DNA of 64,000 nucleotides from contig CAYLZE010000012.1 of assembly GCA_964388035.1 (NCBI GenBank), positions 13,567-77,566 of the forward strand. The letters are read 5' to 3'. The notes under the pieces were generated by a model, which saw only the letters and a list, made by a program, of their open reading frames with translations, did not search any database and was not told the origin of the DNA. The stretch's first letter is position 1; every line of letters begins with the position of its first letter. This document shows positions 12,773 through 41,934 of this stretch, one piece after another. The translations under genes and the position numbers were made by a program. The DNA is from an uncultured archaeon (GTDB lineage Archaea > Asgardarchaeota > Lokiarchaeia > Sigyniarchaeales > SOKP01).

Positions 12773-13612
12773 TTATTTTAACCCTTTCTTCTTTTGCCAA
12801 TACAAGCTATAAATATAATATAAACCGAATCCTGCTATTAAAACGATACCTATCACGAGTAAAATGGTATTAAAGAGCGCAGCTTGATTTGCGAACTGTA
12901 CAGGATCTAAATCGCTAATGTTGACGGGTGGTTGGATTCCCAATGAGGCTCCAAGATATGCATAGAAAAAAGCTCGAGGGATCGATCCCAAAAAAGTAGC
13001 AATAGTGTACTTTTTCGGATTCATATCAACTAATCCAGAAGCATAGCTAACGGGATCGAAAGGGATGAAAGGCAAAAAGCGTGCCACTACAATAATTCCG
13101 GAACCATACTTATGGATGAGCTCATCTATCAATAAAAGCGCATTTTGCCCTACAAATTTTTCCGCTATGGGTCTTCCTCCTTTTCTACTAAGAAAAAAAC
13201 AAAATACTCCTGCGGTAACTGAACCAATGATACCCATGATTCCCCCAATAAAAATGCCATATATCATTCCCGTAGCAATCAAGACGACCTCCGAGGGAAT
13301 GGGGGCAATGATTCCCTGCAATGTCATGATTAATAAAAACAAGAAAATGCCAAAAAAACCCAATATATAGATAGGATTTACAATCCATTCCACTACAATC
13401 CTATAAAGAAAAGTCTGGTCAACAAAGAAAATGTAATAGGCAGTGTATACTGATACAACCATTATTGCTACAAAAATGATGATGTAAGCAATTGTTTTTT
13501 TATCATATTGAGAAAAATCAAGGAGATTTCTGAAATAATTTTTAAGTTTATCGGAAAAGCTTTTTCTTTCAAATACCTCATTTTCCTTGTTTTCTTTTGC
13601 TCCATTTTCCAA
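12773..13612 (-). CDS. DedA/TVP38/TMEM64 (VTT domain) membrane protein
   Basis: APIPSE, SRKGGR, ARFLPFIPFDPVSYASG, FLGSIPR motifs; multiple TM segments. Confidence 0.9.
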   Translation of the reverse strand: MENGAKENKENEVFERKSFSDKLKNYFRNLLDFSQYDKKTIAYIIIFVAIMVVSVYTAYYIFFVDQTFLYRIVVEWIVNPIYILGFFGIFLFLLIMTLQGIIAPIPSEVVLIATGMIYGIFIGGIMGIIGSVTAGVFCFFLSRKGGRPIAEKFVGQNALLLIDELIHKYGSGIIVVARFLPFIPFDPVSYASGLVDMNPKKYTIATFLGSIPRAFFYAYLGASLGIQPPVNISDLDPVQFANQAALFNTILLVIGIVLIAGFGLYYIYSLYWQKKKGLK

Positions 13613-30323: not shown

Positions 30324-31574
30324 TTACCCATCAATTATTCTATATATCTCATCCACGATTTTTAATGCCCCGAAAAACGAAGAGTTGAAAGATACGGCAA
30401 CATTTAAAATCGTACATAATGGTTCTCCCTTAAAAGCTTTCTTTTTTGGAATCGTTTTATCGTGAATGTTCGGTAAATTATTAATTCGTTCTATTGATTC
30501 TTCTGATATCGTTTTAGGAGCAAAAAATATGAACTTGGTGGCAAATTGTGCAGGTACATAGGTGTTTAGCATATTGACGATTCCATCCCATTGATTCAAG
30601 TCAAATGATTTAACATGCAAATCCATGAGATTCAAGCTCATTGCACTTTCTGAAACATTTATGGAACCGGGGATTCTAGGATTTATTTCCATGAAATAAG
30701 GAACATGATTTCTTAATACAAAATCAAAACCGTTAATCCCCTTCAGTCCTAGATGCTTGGATAAATATAATGAAATTTCAGCAATTTGTCGTTCATCGCT
30801 TTTTAAGAGATTGCTTGGAACGATATTTCCACTGTACATGAATTCTTTTGGTGAATTCAAGCAACTTAATCCAATTACTTGGCGATTAACGGTAATTACA
30901 TTACTTTGTGCTCCATTCGAGATAGTAGTACAGCTCACAGGTATACCTTCTATATACTCTTGAACTAACCATTCGTTAGCATTAAACTTATTTACCTTCA
31001 GGCTTTCCACTATAAAATCCAAAGATTGCTTATTATCCACTCTATATACATTCACTCCGCCCGCACCTGTCCTTTTTTTTAGAACTAGCGGAAAATTAAA
31101 AATATTCTCCTTTTCTAAAAAAAGATCAAAGGGAATAGTTTTGGGAGCGTGATATCCTTCTTTTTTAAGTATTACATGAAGAAACTCCAAATTCCTTGCT
31201 TTTTTAATAATATCGGTCGCATTATTGACAAATTTTGCTTTTAAATGTTGAGTTATTATTGATTTTTGTATCATTTCTCTTTCTTCTGAAGCATCATCTA
31301 ACCCACTTCCGATAATCAAAAAATCAATATTTGAATTTTCCTTCATCATATCAATAGCATACAAGGCTAAGAATTTACCATACTCTTGCTTGAGAAGGTT
31401 ATAGTTCTTACCTACTTCTTCCGTGAGAATTTTATAATCTTTAACCAGCGGAAAAAGATCTAAATCTCCGAAAAAATCCACTACATATACTTCATAACCT
31501 GCTTTATGAAGAGATTCAACCAGGGGACGAGAGTTAAATCCAACGACTAAAACAGACGATTTCTCTTTATTCAT
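30324..31574 (-). CDS. ATP-grasp ligase (archaeal COG2232-like, possibly C1-cofactor biosynthesis)
   Basis: DFFGDLD, GAGG, QEYIEG, NGFDF, EINPR. Confidence 0.8.
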   Translation of the reverse strand: MNKEKSSVLVVGFNSRPLVESLHKAGYEVYVVDFFGDLDLFPLVKDYKILTEEVGKNYNLLKQEYGKFLALYAIDMMKENSNIDFLIIGSGLDDASEEREMIQKSIITQHLKAKFVNNATDIIKKARNLEFLHVILKKEGYHAPKTIPFDLFLEKENIFNFPLVLKKRTGAGGVNVYRVDNKQSLDFIVESLKVNKFNANEWLVQEYIEGIPVSCTTISNGAQSNVITVNRQVIGLSCLNSPKEFMYSGNIVPSNLLKSDERQIAEISLYLSKHLGLKGINGFDFVLRNHVPYFMEINPRIPGSINVSESAMSLNLMDLHVKSFDLNQWDGIVNMLNTYVPAQFATKFIFFAPKTISEESIERINNLPNIHDKTIPKKKAFKGEPLCTILNVAVSFNSSFFGALKIVDEIYRIIDG

Positions 31575-31636
31575 GGATCAAGTTACTTTATTTACCATAA
31601 AAGGATAAGAACAATTTAAAAAGTACCTAATAATTT

Positions 31637-33841
31637 TTATAATATTTTCTTCAGCTCTAAAATAAGAGAGCTGGGATTGTATCTATCAAATTGATAAATA
31701 TCTGCATTATATTTTTTGAAATTCTTTTTAATTTGTTCGGCAGAATATGGATGAACTCCTAAGGCGCGGGTGGCTTGAGACTTCTTAGGTTCAAGTACCA
31801 CCGTATAAATCTTTTGCTGCGCTATTTTTTTGGCAAGATCTTTTAATTCTTCAATAATTAGAATGTAATCGGATTCTACTTGTGCCACGAGGTCTGGATA
31901 TTTTACAGAAATATTTGCTCCCATATCACTACAAATGAAAATTACGGGAATGATATTTCTATTCTTAAGCTTCTCAATTTTAATAAGTCTTAAACATTCA
32001 TTTAACCCTGCCGCCATGGGAGTATAGGACCTTCCTTCAATATTCTTCAACTTTCTTAAAGCATTCTTGAAAGAAACTGTGGGTTTCTGTAAAACGATGG
32101 AGTCTTTCCCCCGAAATACAATTAATGAAATTTTATCCCGCTTTCTGTATCCTTCTTTCTGAAGAGAAAGAATTACATCCGTCATTTGTTTTATAACGTA
32201 ATACATCGAAGCGGAACTATCGAGTACAAAAAAGAGTGCTAAAGGGGCTCGATATTCAAAGATCTTATCCATGAGATCTTTTTCATCAAATCTCAGTGGA
32301 AATTGGATTTCCGATTGATTATAAATCTTATTCTTTAAATGACTACGTATGGTGGCGTCCAATGCCAACCTTTTGGGCTGATGATTTAATGGTCTTCTAT
32401 AGGTCACGTACCTTCCTTTTTGAGATGATACCATTTTTATGCGTCGTCCTATTCCCCGTCCTCCATAGTTGGAAATTTTACGATCTTTTCGAATATTATC
32501 TAAAATGGAGGTCATCTTTTTTTCCATGCTATATATTAAGGGCATGGCATCCATTTTGTTCTCATAAAATTTAAAGGTCTCCTTTTCGGTTGGGACCTTC
32601 TTTACTTTCCATCCTCCAGCAGGAGTCGCATTCCTTTTCTTCTCATCAGGATATTTGGGAGAAGGTAATTTTTGTTCTTTCGTCTCAGGAATATCTACTT
32701 TCTCAGGATCAACGGGTTGTCGTTGAAATTCCTTTTGAGGCTCATCAGTATGCTTTAATGGTCCTTCTGTCTCTCTATTTGGCTGATAAACTTTCAAATC
32801 TTCTATTGCTTCTTGAATTTTCCCATAAACTTCCGCTATTTTAGCTTCAATCTCTTCGGGGGTCATCTCATAATGCAAGGACTTTATTCTATGTTCAAAA
32901 ACTAAATCCATTGCGATGTTCATGTCCTCTTGATTAATAATCCTTCTTCCGTTAAAGGCAGCATGAGCACGAGCACAGCGCACATAGGTAATGTCAGCCC
33001 TTTGAGAAAAGATATCCAATTCATTAACTATCTTTGAAATCAGTTCATAAACAGCATTCGGAATTTCTACATCTTTTATGATTTCTCGTGCTTTACTAAT
33101 TTTATTTCGCAATTCTTCTTGATCTTTTTCGTACTTCTTTATAAATTCCCTGGGATTATCATGAAACTCGATTACTCTACGTGTTATTTCTGCTCTTAGT
33201 TTGGGGTCTCGCGGAGACACAATCTTGACTTCCAGTCCCAATCTATCTGCTATTTGGGGCCTTAATTCTCCTTCTTCAGGATTCATGCTTCCCACCAATA
33301 CGAATCGAGAGGGATGCATGACAGAAATCCCCTCTCTTTCTATGATATTAACTCCAGAAGCTGCTGAGTCTAAGAGCGTATCCACGATATGATCTTGGAG
33401 CAAGTTAATTTCATCTATATAGAGTATTCCACGATTTGCTTTAGCCAATAATCCTGGATGCAATTCCGATACTCCTTTTGAAAGAACTTTTTCAATAGAA
33501 AGAGAACCACAAACCATATCTTCCGTTACTCCAAGAGGTAGATTGATAAGTTCCATCTCCCTTGACTCTAATGCTAATTGTCCGTTTTCCTCCTTTTTCT
33601 TACACTCATCGCATAATTCCTCTAAATTCGAATTAGGATCGCATGAAAAAGGACAATCTTGAACAACTTCAATTTGAGGCATAATATCCACCAAGGATCT
33701 CACTGCTGTAGATTTACCCGTGCCTTGATGCCCACTTAGAAGTACCCCCCCGATCTGAGGATCAAGCACATTCAAAATTAAGGCCATTTTTAACCTATCT
33801 TGTCCCAATATCGCAGAAAAGGGGAAATTTATTTTTTTCAT
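31637..33841 (-). CDS. Chelatase ChlI/ChlD-like AAA+ ATPase fused to VWA domain
   Basis: FPFSAILGQ, GHQGTGKS, PGLLAKANRGILYIDEINLL, MNPEEGELRPQ; MIDAS DSSASM. Confidence 0.9.
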   Translation of the reverse strand: MKKINFPFSAILGQDRLKMALILNVLDPQIGGVLLSGHQGTGKSTAVRSLVDIMPQIEVVQDCPFSCDPNSNLEELCDECKKKEENGQLALESREMELINLPLGVTEDMVCGSLSIEKVLSKGVSELHPGLLAKANRGILYIDEINLLQDHIVDTLLDSAASGVNIIEREGISVMHPSRFVLVGSMNPEEGELRPQIADRLGLEVKIVSPRDPKLRAEITRRVIEFHDNPREFIKKYEKDQEELRNKISKAREIIKDVEIPNAVYELISKIVNELDIFSQRADITYVRCARAHAAFNGRRIINQEDMNIAMDLVFEHRIKSLHYEMTPEEIEAKIAEVYGKIQEAIEDLKVYQPNRETEGPLKHTDEPQKEFQRQPVDPEKVDIPETKEQKLPSPKYPDEKKRNATPAGGWKVKKVPTEKETFKFYENKMDAMPLIYSMEKKMTSILDNIRKDRKISNYGGRGIGRRIKMVSSQKGRYVTYRRPLNHQPKRLALDATIRSHLKNKIYNQSEIQFPLRFDEKDLMDKIFEYRAPLALFFVLDSSASMYYVIKQMTDVILSLQKEGYRKRDKISLIVFRGKDSIVLQKPTVSFKNALRKLKNIEGRSYTPMAAGLNECLRLIKIEKLKNRNIIPVIFICSDMGANISVKYPDLVAQVESDYILIIEELKDLAKKIAQQKIYTVVLEPKKSQATRALGVHPYSAEQIKKNFKKYNADIYQFDRYNPSSLILELKKIL

Positions 33842-34092: not shown

Positions 34093-35055
34093 TTAAAATA
34101 ATTTTGAAATTTCAGTAATTTTTAGTTCTAATCCTGAAACGGTCTCATCCCATTGGTGCAAGACTTCCTCGAGTTGAGGAATTACGCTCTCTCTTTCTTT
34201 ATACTCCAAATAACTCATGAAAGATTTTATATGATCAATTTGAATAAAAGTCTCCGCTACATATTTGTTGATATCTTTTTTTTGGTTTTCTAAAACCTCT
34301 GTTACTCTGGTGGATTCACCTTTTCTCACGAGAGTTTTCAAGTACTCTTCTGTCCCAAGGAGCATCGAATCCAACTTATTTATCCTCTCATTCACATAAT
34401 TTCGATAAAAATCAATGATGTTATCGCGAGGGAAAAAATTTGTCACGTCGATGATTAACCGCTGTGCTTCAAGGATCATTTTTTCTGGACTTTCAAAACC
34501 TTCAATTTTATATTCGATTTCGTGAAAATTACTTTTTTCATTATTTGCATCTTCTAAACGAAAGATTTTAAATCCCGGATCCTTCTCCAATTTTTTAACA
34601 GGATCTCCCTTTCTGTTTGGTAATTCTTCTTGTTTTAATAAGCGCTCATGATTAAATACCAATGAAATTGCTAAAGGATTTATGCTCTGATAAGATAATG
34701 TAGTTTTTCTATCTCCAAATCCTGAGAGCATGACCTTGAATCCGGGATGGCTATGCCACCAACCTATCACAAATTCATCCCTGGAATAGGCTTCATCTTC
34801 AATCATTGTCGTAGAAATATAATCCTCGTCCGACCACACGTATCTATCAACAACCGCATTTGGATCATATGTTTCATGCATGATAGGATATGCTTCACTA
34901 ACGATTACATCTTCCTTTTTTTTCTTTCCCACATTCTTACCAATAAAGATACCGTTTGCCTCTAACCATTGCTCCTTGGGAATCTTCTTATTTGCAAAGC
35001 GAACACATGCTGCAACAATTGTAAAATATACCGATTTAGGAATAATAACTGTCAT
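34093..35055 (-). CDS. MPN/JAB domain + helical/coiled-coil tail protein (variant JAMM motif)
   Basis: EANG, GWWHSHPGFKVMLSGFGD. Start moved to the ATG at 35055 (MTVIIP) because it aligns with the paralogue N-termini. Confidence 0.85.
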   Translation of the reverse strand: MTVIIPKSVYFTIVAACVRFANKKIPKEQWLEANGIFIGKNVGKKKKEDVIVSEAYPIMHETYDPNAVVDRYVWSDEDYISTTMIEDEAYSRDEFVIGWWHSHPGFKVMLSGFGDRKTTLSYQSINPLAISLVFNHERLLKQEELPNRKGDPVKKLEKDPGFKIFRLEDANNEKSNFHEIEYKIEGFESPEKMILEAQRLIIDVTNFFPRDNIIDFYRNYVNERINKLDSMLLGTEEYLKTLVRKGESTRVTEVLENQKKDINKYVAETFIQIDHIKSFMSYLEYKERESVIPQLEEVLHQWDETVSGLELKITEISKLF

Positions 35056-35238
35056 GATTTTTTTATAAAAATATTCATTTTCTCTAAACTTAATATAATT
35101 GATTGTCTTTTTATTTTTTTTCAAATGAATAAGAGAAAAGCCAAAAATTATTTATAGATTAATTTCTATCTAATTAGTAATATTTAGTTCATATTTGTTC
35201 TATCATCGATTAAGAAAAGAGTGAATAAATTGGTTGAG

Positions 35239-35919
35239 ATGGGATTTGCACCGCTGAGTACAGCTTTAGGTATAGCGGGAACATCATATTTAGTACAATT
35301 AGGATTAATTAATGAGAAATGGGCAGCACGGGTTTTAAAAGGTCGAGATGTTATCGATTCATATGTATTTAAAGATGAAGACATTGATGCTGACCGACCA
35401 AACTCAAACATTATTGTTGGTTGGATATTGCGTACCATAACACTTCCAAATATCAATCCTTACGGTGTAATGAAAACGGTTCAAGCTTTATTAAAACAAG
35501 CAGTCGATAAAAAAGATAAGCATCGCATGTCCGCTCCAATATCTGAAACCCAACATGTTAAGTTAGAGCAAGTTCCACAAAATGAGTTAAAGAGACCTGC
35601 AGTTCAAGGGACGGTGGTAGATGATTCTAAAAGCGAGCAGGATAAACGTGACGCTTTTAAGCAGAAAGTTTTATTTTCTCGAGAACAGGAACCACCATTT
35701 GCCTCGACTACCACGTCAACCACGACTACCTCCCGCAAGCTCCCTTCTATACCGTCGGCTTCTTCCTCAGATAACGAATCTATCCCTTTCGCTACCCAAA
35801 CTGGTGCCGCAGAATCATCTAAACAAGGTGAAAAAGGATCAAAATTCTGTCCTTACTGTGGGGGTAATCTAAATTGGCACTATTGTCCTTATTGCGGCAA
35901 GAAATTGCCACACGAGTAA
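35239..35919 (+). CDS. Hypothetical protein: globular N-domain, S/T-rich linker, C-terminal double CxxC zinc ribbon
   Basis: FCPYCG...YCPYCG at the C-terminus; ATG at 35239 preferred over GTG at 35221. Confidence 0.8.
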   Translation: MGFAPLSTALGIAGTSYLVQLGLINEKWAARVLKGRDVIDSYVFKDEDIDADRPNSNIIVGWILRTITLPNINPYGVMKTVQALLKQAVDKKDKHRMSAPISETQHVKLEQVPQNELKRPAVQGTVVDDSKSEQDKRDAFKQKVLFSREQEPPFASTTTSTTTTSRKLPSIPSASSSDNESIPFATQTGAAESSKQGEKGSKFCPYCGGNLNWHYCPYCGKKLPHE

Positions 35920-36054: not shown

Positions 36055-37593
36055 TTGGATTTGCGAGATAAATCGTTAGTGATTATAAAACCGAAAGCAT
36101 TTTATAAAATGCTAGTTCACGTGCTTAGATTTGGTAATAAAGTGAGGGATAAAAACCAATATGAAGAGGGCTCCGTTGAGGTGATGGGCATGTTAATCGG
36201 GAGGTTGGAAGGTGATGAGGAGCCAAAAAACGTGATCGTGGATGATGCTATCCCCATATCACACGGAGGTTCAATTGAGGTCTCCTTTACAATTGAAGAT
36301 TATGCCACTTTTACAGATATTGAATATAAAATAACCCAAAAATATCCTGATTTATTTAATGTGGGATGGTATCATAGTCATCCTAATCTTGGTCTCTTCT
36401 TCTCGGGAACAGATATTAAAAATCAAATGGGATTTCGTTTTCCAAGTTCAATTGGAATTGTTTTTGACCATAGCTTGTTCATGACAAGTGAAGAAGAGTT
36501 AGGATTCAAAACTTTTAGGCTGAATGATTTTTCAAAAGTGACACCATCCAATTATCATGAAGTGAAAACAATAATTGAACCGCCCGATTCTCTTGATTTT
36601 TATGTCAACTTGATTAATCTCTTTAATGCTATTCATTTAAAACAGCTTCCTATTTTAGAAGCAAGCGAAACACCTGATTTAATTGGAGAAATTAGTATTC
36701 CTAATCAAGACCAATTGAAATCGAAAAAACCCATAATCCATTCAGAAGAGCTTCTTGAGCAAGTGAAAAAGGGAATAAACGGATTCATGGAGACTTCCTT
36801 GAAACCTATTTTTGAATTTTTAAATGAGTGGAGTCAAAAGATCCTGGTAGAAATTATCAAGAATAATATCGTCATGAGAGAGAATTTAGGCGAAATCATC
36901 GAGATAATAAAAATGGGATTTTCTAATTTATATAAATCAATAAAAACTATAACTTCAGATCATCTGAGTCAGCTATTCACGATATTTGATTATCAAAGTG
37001 ATTTAATTCAAGAACATCAAGTTGATTCGCAGAAAGAAATGGAAGAATTAAGAACTGAAATAATGGAGACAGTTAATTCCTTCGTACAAAATAACCTCAT
37101 GAATCCCTTTAATGAGAAGTTAGAAAATATTGGAGTCAATTTAGAACAAATGGGAAAAATGAATACAAATTTGAGAGATATGGATAAAAATATTGAATCT
37201 TTCCAAAATGAATTAAAGGGCTTAAGTGGGAAATTCTCTTTATTTAATTCTACATTCAATAAATCTATTGATGATAATAAAACCTCATATCAAGAAATAA
37301 GAGAGAATAATTTAAAAATATTAGAAGAAAAATTTGATAAAGTTGATGAACACATTGATATCCTTGAAGATTATTTGGTAAATATATCTAAAGAGATAAA
37401 AAATGCTATTCAAAAGATAAAAACTAAAATTCACGATTATAAACAAGAAAAATCTTCTTTGGAAGAAAAAATGAAAGCTTTAACAGGGGAAAGGAATGCA
37501 CTTGATAAGGATCTCAAAAAAACAAAAGAGATGATAAATGAATTAAATTCACGATTAGAAAGGGCTGATATTAAAGGAGGTAGTAAAGACTAA
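36055..37593 (+). CDS. MPN+ (JAMM) metalloprotease domain + long coiled coil
   Basis: EVMG; GWYHSHPNLGLFFSGTD is the canonical H-x-H-x7-S-x2-D; about 280-aa helical tail. Confidence 0.9.
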   Translation: MDLRDKSLVIIKPKAFYKMLVHVLRFGNKVRDKNQYEEGSVEVMGMLIGRLEGDEEPKNVIVDDAIPISHGGSIEVSFTIEDYATFTDIEYKITQKYPDLFNVGWYHSHPNLGLFFSGTDIKNQMGFRFPSSIGIVFDHSLFMTSEEELGFKTFRLNDFSKVTPSNYHEVKTIIEPPDSLDFYVNLINLFNAIHLKQLPILEASETPDLIGEISIPNQDQLKSKKPIIHSEELLEQVKKGINGFMETSLKPIFEFLNEWSQKILVEIIKNNIVMRENLGEIIEIIKMGFSNLYKSIKTITSDHLSQLFTIFDYQSDLIQEHQVDSQKEMEELRTEIMETVNSFVQNNLMNPFNEKLENIGVNLEQMGKMNTNLRDMDKNIESFQNELKGLSGKFSLFNSTFNKSIDDNKTSYQEIRENNLKILEEKFDKVDEHIDILEDYLVNISKEIKNAIQKIKTKIHDYKQEKSSLEEKMKALTGERNALDKDLKKTKEMINELNSRLERADIKGGSKD

Positions 37594-38933
37594 TGCAAGA
37601 AGCCAAAATCTTAATTTCTAAAAATGCATTCCATAAAATGTTATCTCACGCATCAAGACATGGAAGTCCTGCCTTAAAAGAGAGATTTAATGTAGTGGGG
37701 GCATGCATTGGAAAAAAAGACCCTAAAACTAAAGATCTAATTGTATCAGAGATCGTACCATTGATTCATGGAGAGCTCATTAATAAATCCCGTCCTAATA
37801 TAAACACCAATCAGCTAGAAAATGTAAAAGCCCAATATATTAAAGAAAATCTTTCTATTATTGGTTGGTATCATTCGATCCTAGAAGGAGAATTGAAATT
37901 TCAAGGAATAAATAAAGATATTCATGTATTATTTCAAAATGAAGAAAAGCCTTCGGGATTCTGCGTGCTCTTTAACCCTTTTCAATCAGAAAGCTCAGTT
38001 CCATTTAGAATTAAGGCATTTCGATTAAATGACATAAAAGACCCCGATATGAACCAATTCCTGGAAATAGAAGTAAAGATAGAACCTCCTAATAGTTTAG
38101 AATATTTTAAATGGATAAAAGATATAATGGAACTTAGAGAAAGTAAAAGTCTAACCTTTATTGAAGAATTTTCTGGGGTTGAATCAATTTCTAAAAGTGA
38201 GTTACAACAAATACCTCAATCTTCTCTCCAAGAAACTCAAGAGAAATGGGAACAAACTGGTCCCATTTTTTCTAAGATTGAAGACGGATTTTCAATTTTT
38301 TTAACTTCTCTAAAACAATCTTTTGAAAAAGAATTTGACGACTGGTTGTCAAATTTAAATGAGGGGGCAACCAAAGGGGGTCGTTCTTTAATGGAAGCAA
38401 CCAATCAAATGAAAGAACAGATTTCTTCAGGAATAGAAAGAATTGAAAAATGGGGCTCTTCTCAAATTAAGGAAAATTTCAAGGAATATGAAGAGGAATT
38501 TGAAGTGATAAGGGAAAAAGAAAATAATTCAATTGAACAAGCAAAAATGCATTTATCAACTTGGAAAAAATCATCTGTAAATGATGTAGAAAAAATTATC
38601 ACTTCGAACTCTTCCCCTCTATTAGAACGTCTTACCAACATGGAAATAAAAAGTCAAGGTACCCAACAAGAACTCTCTTCAACATCTGAGGAATTATTTA
38701 ATAAATTAAATCAGATAAAAGAGAAAATAATGTCGACGAAAAATGAAATAGAAGCAACTCTCCCAAAAATGATAAAGAATGTTGAGGGAGATCTAGAAAG
38801 AGGGCGCCAAGAAATTAATGCTGTTTATGATAAAATAACAAATAAGTATGGGGATCTTGAAAAAAAACTTTCCATTATTGAATCATCCCTTAAATCTCTA
38901 CAAGAATTGATTTCCGAAATCGGAAAATTATAG
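37593..38933 (+). CDS. MPN- (catalytically degenerate) domain + long coiled coil
   Basis: NVVG in place of EVMG; GWYHSILEGELKFQGIN lacks the second His, Ser and Asp; IEPPNSLEY matches paralogue IEPPDSLDF; TAATG overlap. Confidence 0.85.
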   Translation: MQEAKILISKNAFHKMLSHASRHGSPALKERFNVVGACIGKKDPKTKDLIVSEIVPLIHGELINKSRPNINTNQLENVKAQYIKENLSIIGWYHSILEGELKFQGINKDIHVLFQNEEKPSGFCVLFNPFQSESSVPFRIKAFRLNDIKDPDMNQFLEIEVKIEPPNSLEYFKWIKDIMELRESKSLTFIEEFSGVESISKSELQQIPQSSLQETQEKWEQTGPIFSKIEDGFSIFLTSLKQSFEKEFDDWLSNLNEGATKGGRSLMEATNQMKEQISSGIERIEKWGSSQIKENFKEYEEEFEVIREKENNSIEQAKMHLSTWKKSSVNDVEKIITSNSSPLLERLTNMEIKSQGTQQELSSTSEELFNKLNQIKEKIMSTKNEIEATLPKMIKNVEGDLERGRQEINAVYDKITNKYGDLEKKLSIIESSLKSLQELISEIGKL

Positions 38934-38968: not shown

Positions 38969-39235
38969 CTAAAAGAAGCGGAGCGAGTGGATTTTACTTT
39001 TATATAAAGCATATTTCGGTATATTGGTGGAAAGTCTTTTTAATTGATTATTCTTTGCTACTTTACTCAAAATTCTTCCAATTCTGTCGATTTTAATGTC
39101 CACACCGTAATTTTCCTTTAAAACTGAAGCAATTTTATAGGAAGATAAAATTACAACATCAGATACATTATTTGCAACCAATATTTCAATGGCTTTTTTT
39201 ATTAATGCAAGAAGCTTTTCTTTTTCTTTATCCAT
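38969..39235 (-). CDS. Small basic protein, likely winged-helix DNA-binding
   Basis: LSSYKIASVLKENYGVDIKIDRIGRILSK; probable start MDKEKEK at 39235. Confidence 0.55.
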   Translation of the reverse strand: MDKEKEKLLALIKKAIEILVANNVSDVVILSSYKIASVLKENYGVDIKIDRIGRILSKVAKNNQLKRLSTNIPKYALYKSKIHSLRFF

Positions 39236-39612
39236 AGTATACTTAGAATAAATGTTAGGATTATAATTAAATATATACACTAAACTTTTTAAAACTTATT
39301 ATCAAATTGAATGATTAGGGATTTTTTCTTGATGAGTTTATATGATACCTCGCTAGTGAGGATCGGTATTGTATAAAAATTTAAAAGGAATTTTTTTTTT
39401 AAACCATCGTTTCTTGATAAATCATACCCATGATCAATTTTCAATTTATTTGAAAAAGTTATTTATTCTCACAACCATATTATAATAAGATACATTATAA
39501 ATACTACATGAGAGTATTATTGGTAATGAATCATATTTCAAGGTAATAAATATATCAGATATAATCTTTATACAAAGTAGAATATATTTTAATTAGGAGA
39601 GTAAAGCACAAC

Positions 39613-41934
39613 ATGTCTCAATCAAAATCTAAGTCAGAAAGTTTGAAAGCTAAACTAAAAAAACTCTTAAATCCCGATACTTTAATGATTAAGAAAGAAG
39701 AACAAAAGTTTTATTCCTTTAATAAAAAATTTTTCGGACTCTATATCATATTCTTATTATATTCTTTCGTGCTCTTGTTTACTATCAATGCACCAAATAA
39801 TATTATTACAAGTTTGTTCACGTTCGGTAACCCTTTTGCACTTTCGGTCACTCTCATTGTATTTTTCATAATTCTCTCTTTTCTCTATAGCAATGACACG
39901 GTTAGAATATTTATCTTTGAAAAAAATACCGTAATCAAACAATTAGCACTCTACGTCGGAATTATTGTACCTTTATTCTTATTATTTTCCCTTGTCATAG
40001 GAACCACATTCAATCTTACATCCTTTTTACTTGTCTTGTCTATGATCTGGTTAATTATCTATAGTAGCAGGTATTATATTTATTCTAGAAAATTCTCCAC
40101 CAAAATTGAATCGCGGATTATAAAAAAATATTCGATCATGAGAAATTTCATTGTCACAATCTCGCCCATCATCATTTTAGCAGTTTTAGTGTTTATATCT
40201 TGGTTATATAGAGCATTATTGGTATATTTCTCCTTAGATTTTCTCGCCCCTTCCGATCCATCGGGTGCTGTTTCAGTCTATTATGTAGAGATGAGAATAA
40301 TCATGCCTTTAATCTATTCAAGTTTAATTATTACCATGGTATTTATTTCGATTGAATACATATTTACCAGAAGAAGAGGAGAAACAAAAAGAGCAGGTAT
40401 TTTTGATAATTTTACCTTTGCCTTCATCGTATTTTTCATTTTTTTCTTCCAACTCATGCAAATGACTATTTACCTGCTCTTGAGAACCGAAACAGTATCT
40501 GCTTTAAAAAAAGTGCTCGGAACTACAAGCTCAACGGCAAGTTTTATTTTCTTTCTGGAATTCGGAGTATCCATGATCTTTTTATATAGGGTGCTTACCA
40601 AGACCGGGAGATCTCTAGGATGGAACATTTTATTCTTTAAACAAGACGGGTTGATTTTATTCATGCTAGCATCTATATTTTCACAAACCACCACGCGTTT
40701 TTCTCTTTCCACAAATGTTCCTAATCAAGAAATAACGGGACTGGGAATCATTTTTTTGTCAGATAAATACGTTATCTCTATTATCATGATCCTTTTCTTA
40801 GGAATCACGCTCCTGATTTATTATTTAAAACCCCATGAAACCTCAATGTTCATGAGAATGGAAAAAGAAATAATTGATGAAGAAGAACGGGAAATGGATA
40901 TCGTGTATAAATTAATTCGAAATGAATACATAAGACGGGGAGAACCGTTTCCCGTGGAAATTCTGGAACGTCAATTAATTAAAAATACCCAAATGTCAAA
41001 AGCTGCTGTATACTCATTACTCCGGAGATTAGCGGAAAAAGAAGTAGATATCGAATTAAAACGAATGCCTGATGGACAAGGGAGATTGGTCTTAATGATA
41101 GATTTTATTTCAGTGACAGAACAATTCGAAAAAAAGGGTGCTGCACATAAAAAAGCTCAAAGATTTATTTCGAATAAATTAATTCAAACAATGTCTGGAC
41201 CACGACGTAAAGAATTGAAATTACAGGAGAATTTAAAATCTGATAAAGCAACCGATCAATTTATCGCTTCTTTATCTCACGATTATACTAAGAAACAATT
41301 GGAGGAAGAGAAATTTGAACAAAAAAGAGAAAAAGAGCTAAGGAAAGTAAAGTTTAAAGAAGGAAAAGTTCCCGAGTTTCTGAAGGATGAAATTATAGAC
41401 CTAATTAAAGAAGAATATATCTTCAGAATAGAAAATCCTGAAAAATATTCAAGCTATTTGATTCCAATTTCAGATATTTCACTAAAAATCCAAATGCAAA
41501 CTAAGATTACTCCAGGAGATTTATACCCCTTATTGAAAAAAATAGGGAGAAGTGATTTAGAAATGAAATTACTCCGAAATCCAGAGAATAAGGAAGATCA
41601 ATTAATATCTTTTTTTCCGATAGCTAGCGATTCGATAAATTTTTCCCTCGAAAGCTTTAGACCAGAAGAATATTCAGCAATTAAAGTAAAAGTTATTGAA
41701 AATTTCATTGAATGTTTTAAAAGGGTAAGAACTAAAGATGTCATTTTGAATTTAAGCAAAGGTATTAAAAAAGAGACGGAAGATCAAAAAGAATGGAATG
41801 ATATTCTATTTTACTTATCAGAGGAATTCCCCAAATTAGATATGGATTTAAAGCGCGTTCCTAACTATAATGTATTCATGAAACATTTTAATGAATACTT
41901 GAAAAAAGCAGATCAAATGAATACAAAACAATGA
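39613..41934 (+). CDS. Polytopic membrane protein (about 10 TM) with soluble C-terminal winged-helix-like domains
   Basis: Hydrophobic segments in aa 40-405; two related wH-like segments (LIRNEY...VYSLLRRL; LIKEEY...LYPLLKKI). Confidence 0.75.
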   Translation: MSQSKSKSESLKAKLKKLLNPDTLMIKKEEQKFYSFNKKFFGLYIIFLLYSFVLLFTINAPNNIITSLFTFGNPFALSVTLIVFFIILSFLYSNDTVRIFIFEKNTVIKQLALYVGIIVPLFLLFSLVIGTTFNLTSFLLVLSMIWLIIYSSRYYIYSRKFSTKIESRIIKKYSIMRNFIVTISPIIILAVLVFISWLYRALLVYFSLDFLAPSDPSGAVSVYYVEMRIIMPLIYSSLIITMVFISIEYIFTRRRGETKRAGIFDNFTFAFIVFFIFFFQLMQMTIYLLLRTETVSALKKVLGTTSSTASFIFFLEFGVSMIFLYRVLTKTGRSLGWNILFFKQDGLILFMLASIFSQTTTRFSLSTNVPNQEITGLGIIFLSDKYVISIIMILFLGITLLIYYLKPHETSMFMRMEKEIIDEEEREMDIVYKLIRNEYIRRGEPFPVEILERQLIKNTQMSKAAVYSLLRRLAEKEVDIELKRMPDGQGRLVLMIDFISVTEQFEKKGAAHKKAQRFISNKLIQTMSGPRRKELKLQENLKSDKATDQFIASLSHDYTKKQLEEEKFEQKREKELRKVKFKEGKVPEFLKDEIIDLIKEEYIFRIENPEKYSSYLIPISDISLKIQMQTKITPGDLYPLLKKIGRSDLEMKLLRNPENKEDQLISFFPIASDSINFSLESFRPEEYSAIKVKVIENFIECFKRVRTKDVILNLSKGIKKETEDQKEWNDILFYLSEEFPKLDMDLKRVPNYNVFMKHFNEYLKKADQMNTKQ

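Follow-up and report, generated by a model that had tools for sequence, protein, structure and literature searches.

Locus and coupled gene pair

In the proteasome lid, the COP9 signalosome and BRISC, catalysis is centred on a pair of MPN-domain proteins, one active and one inactive. We analysed a candidate for such a pair in the genome of an uncultured Asgard archaeon (Lokiarchaeia; Sigyniarchaeales; assembly GCA_964388035.1, contig CAYLZE010000012.1). The stretch of DNA under study, hereafter the window, spans 64,000 nucleotides (positions 13,567 to 77,566 of the contig), and coordinates without a locus label refer to it. The subject is two neighbouring genes, A and B, which a preliminary description made from the sequence letters had taken for an active enzyme and its pseudo-enzyme partner. 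Their features are as follows.

36055..37593, + strand: gene A, MPN+ (JAMM) protein with a long helical tail, 512 residues (open reading frame, Pfam JAB, AlphaFold2)
36055..36639, + strand: MPN domain of A, residues 1-195 (Pfam JAB, 2.2e-13; Foldseek match to Rpn11, 4o8x_B)
36787..37572, + strand: tail of A, one predicted helix, residues 245-506 (AlphaFold2; periodicity analysis)
37576..37595, + strand: coupling junction, GGAGGT and TAA/ATG overlap (read from the sequence)
37593..38933, + strand: gene B, MPN− paralogue with a helical tail, 446 residues (open reading frame, Pfam JAB, AlphaFold2)
37593..38141, + strand: degenerate MPN domain of B, residues 1-183 (Pfam JAB; Foldseek match to Rpn11, 4o8x_B)
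38265..38927, + strand: tail of B, residues 225-445 (AlphaFold2; length comparison)

The two genes share a single base in the sequence TAATG, where the stop codon TAA of A (37591-37593) runs into the start codon ATG of B (37593-37595). A GGAGGT at 37576-37581 lies inside the end of A, 12-17 nucleotides ahead of the ATG of B. The start of A is uncertain by two codons: we use a TTG start here, and the database copy P0006 begins two codons later. BLASTP aligns A with B over 306 columns at 25% identity (E = 2e-16), which marks them as paralogues; the similarity extends well past the MPN core, and both match Pfam JAB (PF01398) at 50.5 bits for A and 34.0 bits for B against a cut-off of 22.5. The paralogy and the TAATG overlap given in the preliminary description thus agree with both the coordinates and the alignment. 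When modelled by AlphaFold2 with family alignments, the two proteins have a common plan of an MPN domain, a linker and a long helical tail. Both models match Rpn11 (4o8x_B) in Foldseek with a TM-score of 0.73 (E = 4e-12 for A, 7e-10 for B). The linker of A is poorly ordered in the model and bears a conserved ILE-x-NETPD-like motif.

The JAMM site of A is complete, as first described: it consists of E42 (36178-36180) and the motif H107-S-H109-x7-S117-x2-D120 (36373-36414). None of these five residues (E/H/H/S/D) varies among 98 homologues or in any orthologue inspected, and the segment SHGGSIEV before helix 2 is invariant or nearly so in the same 98 sequences. B keeps one of the five catalytic residues, with N33 (37689-37691) in place of the glutamate and a remnant at 37872-37913 that reads H94-S-I96, Q104 and N107. 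B in this genome is MPN−, and the loss of the zinc site that had been claimed for the second gene is real, four of the five residues (N33, I96, Q104 and N107) having been replaced. B also matches Pfam UPF0172, the EMC8/9 family, above its cut-off. Since this match covers the same stretch of B as the JAB match, it does not discriminate between the two families.

Conservation of the arrangement was followed in 37 related loci that we fetched. A and B are adjacent in 36 of them, with a spacing of −19 to +17 nucleotides, so that a comparison of synteny, which had been proposed as a check on the pair, found the pairing retained. A GGAGG-like site lies inside the end of A in 25 of the loci. With B as the query, 27 of 31 related genomes gave a match, and the best match in the window's family (the taxonomic family of this genome) directly follows a homologue of A. 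The open reading frames are intact in all relatives inspected; in-frame stops that seemed to interrupt A in some relatives were rejected, the alignments having overrun the stop codon. No fused A-B or longer forms were found among proteins of 897-2560 residues, which is weak evidence. For the locus itself no RNA runs were listed, the matching runs being DNA, mostly from salt marsh metagenomes. Taken from gene order and sequence, these comparisons support A and B as a conserved, tightly coupled pair.

Repeated decay of the site of B under selection

We scored the state of the B site in 38 genomes. The site is complete in 9 of them, and 3 more have Thr for Ser. Loci L026 and L028 are examples with an intact B. 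Five genomes have lost the Glu alone. The remaining copies have lost one or both His residues, in ten patterns (SSH, HSR, ISH, VSH, LSR, CSN, LSH, SSR, RTS and HSI), and intact and dead B copies are both found within single genera. To count changes we used a tree built from A, which is therefore independent of the trait. On this tree, intact and degenerate states of B require at least 5 changes, 4 of which are forced by well-supported branches, and the motif classes require 16. If a lost site is not regained, we infer that these counts imply about 13 separate losses.

Substitution rates were compared in close pairs by the Nei-Gojobori method, as the ratio of nonsynonymous to synonymous rates (dN/dS). 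Over the whole gene, dN/dS was 0.08-0.28 for A and 0.12-0.41 for B. Over the MPN domain only, for which the values were taken at unsaturated dS, dead B copies gave 0.13-0.24 against 0.05-0.13 for A. Judged by these ratios, dead B is not a pseudogene and is under purifying selection. An unconserved or neutrally evolving MPN− gene, which the preliminary description had named as evidence against the pair, was not what we found: B is conserved, and its dead copies are constrained at the ratios given above.

In a tree of the MPN domains, the clade of A and that of C, a third paralogue at the locus (see below), are well supported (98 and 99), a clade of short proteins that we call D is moderately supported (94), and B is not resolved as a clade. 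The branches of intact B copies are short and lie near the centre, whereas those of dead copies are long, a pattern that fits a duplication inside this lineage followed by repeated decay. Because B is still MPN+ in several relatives, its inactivation is, on these trees, recent, repeated and internal to the lineage.

Predicted head dimer and helical tails

The complex was predicted in one job that paired A residues 1-330 with B residues 1-310, using our own alignments, alongside three controls. A with B gave an ipSAE of 0.74 (0.76, 0.74 and 0.74 in separate runs), and the best of the controls gave 0.00. The mark applied to this score is reached by 58 of 80 solved complexes and by 2 of 110 mismatched pairs, a calibration that is only rough here since our own alignments were used. 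The runs share at least 76% of their contacts, and the partner has a pLDDT of at least 70. Confident contacts join A residues 13-28 and 174-199 with B residues 13-28 and 163-189. The paired residues run in the same direction, which gives a parallel four-helix bundle to which each subunit contributes its helices 1 and 4. The crystal homodimer of the archaeal protein CsRpn11 is likewise a parallel H1/H4 dimer, which its authors found grossly reminiscent of Rpn8-Rpn11 (PMC6043591).

Beyond the heads, AlphaFold2 models the tail of A as one helix (245-506) and that of B as two (225-355 and 361-445), in agreement with the long helical tails noted at first. The preliminary description had called these tails coiled coils. 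The order of an MPN domain followed by a helix does match BRCC36/Abraxas; the periodicity is mostly not that of a heptad coiled coil. Averaged over the alignments, the hydrophobicity period is 3.60-3.68 over most of both tails, which is that of a hendecad (about 3.67) and not of a heptad. A heptad island occurs at A 358-413 and B 338-393, at an equal offset from the start of each tail, and a further heptad stretch (414-497) is present only in A.

Despite a column conservation of about 35%, A 246-421 and B 226-446 are nearly free of indels in 37 orthologues, and all length variation in the tail of A falls after residue 421. The part of B that follows the MPN domain measures 277-290 residues in 36 of 37. 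The tail of A is as long as or longer than that of B in 36 of the 37 loci, the remaining one (L035) having 281 against 285 residues. The two lengths do not covary (r = 0.20), the tail of B being near constant. The distal ends of the tails are better conserved than their middles. These sequence patterns are compatible with a rod of fixed length in which the tails lie parallel and in register.

A tail period of about 11/3 could stem from composition, from a right-handed or straight coiled coil, or from a helix that faces lipid. The two family profiles match apolipoprotein A-IV (E = 3e-8 and 1.5e-8); these matches and those to SMC, ZorA and syntaxin are weak and are read as compositional. Searches of A and B with NCBIfam returned coiled-coil noise only, as did the PADLOC models of defence systems (JetC, ZorA and LmuB).

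Relation to known MPN systems

In the PDB, the profiles of both families match CsRpn11, Rpn11, CSN5, BRCC36 and AMSH, all of which are MPN+ enzymes. The top match for both is CsRpn11 (6fjv; 1.4e-14 for A, 5.3e-17 for B), and in the fold search the model of B is closest to chains of Rpn11. The 60 matches shown for the B-family profile include no Rpn8, CSN6, eIF3f or Abraxas. By profile and fold, B is not an orthologue of Rpn8, CSN6 or Abraxas. The preliminary description had offered two origins for the pair, a prokaryotic precursor of the eukaryotic complexes or a convergent analogue of them. Because profiles and folds match only MPN+ enzymes and B is still MPN+ in some relatives, its inactivation being internal to the lineage, a precursor is not supported and a convergent analogue is the reading that fits.

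In the BRCC36/Abraxas pair an MPN− scaffold binds and activates an MPN+ enzyme, with the coiled coils joined in a helical bundle (PMC7692841). Like BRCC36 with Abraxas or ABRO1, which are the cores of BRCA1-A and BRISC, A and B have an MPN domain followed by a helical segment in both subunits, and BRCC36 is among the sequence and fold matches. Unlike them, A and B have mostly hendecad tails of 220-260 residues in place of a short coiled coil, B is unrelated to Abraxas, and BRCC36 is matched less strongly than Rpn11 and CSN5 are. No UEV (BRE) or MERIT40-type partner was seen in the A/B cluster; a neighbouring VWA protein is ChlI/ChlD-like and probably unrelated.

With Rpn11-Rpn8 and CSN5-CSN6 the pair would have in common the MPN+/MPN− heterodimer of paralogues and the contact through helix 1 and helix 4, both of which are predictions for A and B. 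By sequence and by fold, both proteins have Rpn11 and CSN5 among their best matches. It differs from them in that no PCI subunits or helical-bundle partners were found and that B arose inside an archaeal lineage. The packing differs as well: Rpn8-Rpn11 is described as antiparallel (PMC6043591), whereas the predicted packing of A with B is parallel, as in the CsRpn11 crystal dimer. CsRpn11 and the Rpn11-like deubiquitinase of the Asgard ubiquitin operon are, like A, archaeal JAMM proteins of eukaryote-like type, with an H1/H4 parallel dimer in the CsRpn11 crystal. They are single proteins of about 200-270 residues encoded beside ubiquitin, E1, E2 and RING genes, in contrast to A and B with their long tails, paralogous partner and no linked ubiquitin genes. 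According to a 2018 study of the archaeal Rpn11 homologue, an active/inactive MPN organisation was not known in archaea (PMC6043591). We found no published description of the A/B family in a search of full-text literature, which does not reach many subscription papers.

EMC8 and EMC9, the UPF0172 proteins that serve as cytosolic MPN− subunits of the endoplasmic reticulum membrane complex (EMC), provide a further comparison. B and the short proteins D and E described below match UPF0172, and a TPR protein and a membrane protein are encoded in the gene set as well. On the other side, the UPF0172 match overlaps that of JAB, the two families are taken as related, and the membrane protein showed no similarity to any EMC subunit, so we regard the comparison as a lead only.

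Proposed model and alternatives

We propose that a shared transcript gives rise to both A and B, which assemble into a two-headed rod. The MPN domains would pair through the parallel H1/H4 bundle predicted above. From the head, both tails would emerge on one side and stay in register as a helical rod for about 220 residues (about 30 nm), with the heptad extension of A reaching beyond. In this assembly A would act as a zinc isopeptidase, and B would be a structural or activating partner. If B is needed as a partner and not as an enzyme, selection can maintain the protein while its catalytic site decays. The complete JAMM site of A and the conservation of SHGGSIEV argue for catalysis, and the resemblance to MPN+ deubiquitinases suggests that the activity would be that of a deubiquitinase. 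The substrate would likely be a ubiquitin-like C-terminus, two ubiquitin-like proteins and three E1/E2 sets being encoded elsewhere in the genome. The most speculative step is docking, in which the conserved distal ends of the tails would bind other products of the gene set, possibly the membrane protein. We judge an A/B heterodimer with one working site to be the probable arrangement, with room for error, and hold ubiquitin as its substrate with less assurance.

Several points weigh against this heterodimer. A and B lie 6 kb apart in one genome (G017), the sole separated locus of the 37. Since the predicted interface is the interface of the CsRpn11 crystal dimer, the complex score may be owed to a resemblance to MPN dimers of known structure. 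A close paralogue can also pass for a true partner, so A-A or B-B dimers may form instead. Interface positions of B are only slightly more conserved than the rest of its MPN domain (p = 0.09 for all B copies, 0.04 for dead B), and those of A are indistinguishable from the rest. The shared periodicity of the tails could come from duplication, that is from common descent and not from pairing. In the prediction of A 1-330 with B 1-310, no confident tail contacts were obtained beyond A 199 or B 189. For the heterodimeric MPN+/MPN− pair of the preliminary description, the prediction, at a score of 0.74 with controls at zero, places the confident contacts in the heads and not in the tails. Finally, no match to ubiquitin, E1 or E2 was found on the window's contig, so the substrate is a guess.

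If A and B do not bind each other, each could form a homodimeric rod, and B could be a non-catalytic binder, acting as a receptor for a ubiquitin-like tag or as a competitor of A, that is co-expressed for dosage. The parallel H1/H4 homodimer of CsRpn11 in crystals (PMC6043591) speaks for such homodimers, as do the known tendency of the predictor to pass close cousins of a true partner, the missing covariation of tail lengths, and the lineages in which B is a fully intact MPN+ protein and so could once have worked alone. We nevertheless consider them unlikely, given the tight coupling of A and B retained in 36 of 37 loci, the equal heptad-island offset and indel-free stretch (175 residues) in the two tails, and the invariance of the A site beside the repeated decay of the B site, which fits one shared active site per complex. 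The pair might otherwise be mainly a structural rod or tether, whose heads bind proteins, as do those of Prp8, eIF3f/h and EMC8/9, or cleave a substrate that is not ubiquitin-like, and whose tails lie on a membrane or form a filament with the membrane protein. In favour of such a role are the lack of a ubiquitin, E1 or E2 gene nearby and the linkage of the pair to the genes of a small protein, of a 773-residue membrane protein and, elsewhere than in this lineage, of a TPR protein. It also draws on the tail period of about 3.67 with the apolipoprotein A-IV matches and on the UPF0172 matches of B and of 2 of 4 short MPN-like proteins tested. The apolipoprotein matches may be due to composition only, however, and UPF0172 and JAB overlap on one stretch. 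With the closest sequences and folds being active deubiquitinases, and the JAMM site and SHGGSIEV of A invariant or nearly so in 98 sequences, we find this reading quite improbable.

The pair could also be the direct ancestor, by orthology, of Rpn11/Rpn8, CSN5/CSN6 or BRCC36/Abraxas. An Asgard host, a like subunit logic and the domain order of BRCC36/Abraxas (PMC7692841) would suit this descent. We give it hardly any credence, because the 60 PDB matches shown for the B profile include only MPN+ proteins, B is still MPN+ in some relatives and was inactivated by independent losses, among the families sampled, full-length A and B came from the window's own and a few related lineages, with none from the other 25, and no PCI partner is linked.

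Asgard archaea are currently held to be the archaeal group closest to eukaryotes (PMC10936438). If the heterodimer is real, it would be the first active/inactive MPN pair in a prokaryote, one that arose separately in Asgard archaea. What would be new here is a convergent variant of the eukaryotic MPN+/MPN− design with unusually long tails and a natural series of partners from intact to dead. Close relatives hold B in every state from fully intact to fully dead, with A unchanged, which is a rare comparative series, and the natural intact and dead variants of B can be swapped against the same A. This makes testable a long-standing question, namely how a duplicated enzyme turns into an obligatory pseudo-enzyme partner. 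The repeated loss of the B site under selection would parallel the past of the eukaryotic Rpn8, CSN6 and Abraxas. Tails of about 30 nm and a linked membrane protein suggest a cellular role unlike any described so far.

Neighbouring genes and wider gene set

Four further genes of the window accompany the pair.

34093..35124, − strand: gene C, third MPN+ paralogue with a shorter helical tail (likely start Met at 35055)
35221..35919, + strand: zinc-ribbon protein, directly upstream of A and conserved in the cluster (comparison of loci)
38969..39280, − strand: orf103, small conserved protein of about 100 residues, convergent on B (49-84% identical in relatives)
39613..41934, + strand: polytopic membrane protein of 773 residues with a soluble C-terminal half (comparison of loci)

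Gene C, which is absent from the preliminary description, lies 1 kb upstream of the pair on the opposite strand. Its helical tail has about 170 residues, and the protein is 53-78% identical in relatives. The site is intact in all orthologues; only in this genus does it read S-x3-D (S-G-F-G-D), a one-residue insertion compared with S-x2-D. In the MPN tree, the sister of C is a 526-residue MPN protein of the same genome with a TPR-like helical tail, on contig C124 (support 97). NCBIfam gave no match for C, the zinc-ribbon protein, orf103 or the membrane protein. In the Protein Atlas, the membrane and zinc-ribbon proteins matched only uninformative archaeal (Promethearchaeota) clusters, which may be their own. 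The small protein and the 773-residue membrane protein belong to no known family.

In the window's family, the order of genes is ATP-grasp, AAA-VWA and C on one strand and zinc-ribbon, A and B on the other, followed by orf103, convergent on B, and the membrane protein. Two distant Asgard metagenome-assembled genomes (MAGs) have instead an operon of D, E, a small protein, a TPR protein, A and B (L057:6209-11338 and L060:5522-10765). D and E are short MPN-like proteins of about 205-215 residues that match JAB and UPF0172, the cut-off of the latter being passed by 2 of the 4 D and E proteins tested. The small protein is 49-53% identical to orf103, and the TPR protein (258-261 residues) has no PCI match. 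The convergent next gene encodes a homologue of the membrane protein with 32-33% identity over about 700 residues. A zinc-ribbon homologue lies beside the operon at both loci, and a C homologue was seen beside it in L057. From this conservation across loci, the pair belongs to a larger conserved gene set, and a linkage that outlasts rearrangement argues for a functional connection among its members.

The linkage is not strict. The module of small protein, TPR protein and membrane protein occurs without A and B in one genome of a sister family and apart from A and B in another (L062:7023-11465; L063:4514-10722). Three genomes of the window's family have A and B and gave no match to the membrane protein. 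In G017, a genome without a membrane-protein match, the roughly 6 kb between A and B (L021:8820-14865) hold a hexapeptide-repeat transferase, a fragment match to an Arf-like GTPase and open reading frames without a known family. In two other loci (L056 and L026) a short MPN− protein is encoded just before A, and in L056 a further short MPN-like protein precedes it.

A more far-reaching interpretation is that the gene set encodes an Asgard-specific, membrane-associated isopeptidase machine of many subunits. It would comprise the A/B rod, C, D/E and the TPR protein in some lineages, a small adaptor, the zinc-ribbon protein and the membrane protein, with an active/pseudo-enzyme design independent of that of eukaryotes and caught at several stages. 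We regard this machine as a doubtful, if attractive, proposal.

The AAA+-VWA protein and the ATP-grasp ligase (30324-33841, − strand) show 72-84% and 49-63% identity to their counterparts in relatives. Wherever the AAA-VWA gene and C were both seen, the distant locus L057 included, they are neighbours or no more than a few kb apart. The AAA-VWA product is a fused ChlI/ChlD-like protein of 734 residues that scores 590 bits against TIGR02442, putative cobaltochelatase, below the cut-off of 779. As a ChlI/ChlD-like putative cobaltochelatase it was set aside as a part of the system, and the ATP-grasp ligase was set aside with it.

Distribution and ubiquitin genes of the genome

We surveyed 200 genomes sampled across the phylum. 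All 40 genomes sampled from the window's family gave a full-length match to A, as did one genome from a sister family. Other families, among the matches listed, have only short Rpn11-like open reading frames of about 208-311 residues. Full-length A and B were found in the window's family and in a few related lineages; the 25 remaining families of the sample gave none. When 1.84 billion representatives were searched exhaustively with a profile, 148 clusters were returned at E ≤ 1e-30, and the named members that were looked up are all Asgard. The named homologues all come from Asgard MAGs, with Promethearchaeota, Loki-, Hod-, Hel- and similar labels.

The genome itself has 5.47 Mb in 211 contigs, of which the window's contig is C12. 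Its known archaeal ubiquitin operon is on contig C42, with a partial E1, an E2, a 267-residue Rpn11-like MPN protein and a membrane protein with Cys-rich zinc-finger-like motifs; a ubiquitin-like gene lies close by. C12 has no ubiquitin, E1, E2 or PCI match, and the family PCI gave only weak matches elsewhere in the genome. The A/B locus is therefore distinct from the known Asgard ubiquitin operon, as had been stated at the outset. Further E1/E2 sets are on C38 and C13, which brings the genome to three E1/E2 sets; its two ubiquitin-like proteins are encoded on contigs C42 and C33. In the set on C38 (C38:34206-36982), the E2 match has one in-frame TAG. The E2/E1 set on C13 (C13:882-2959) adjoins a short JAMM protein of 167 residues with an intact site.

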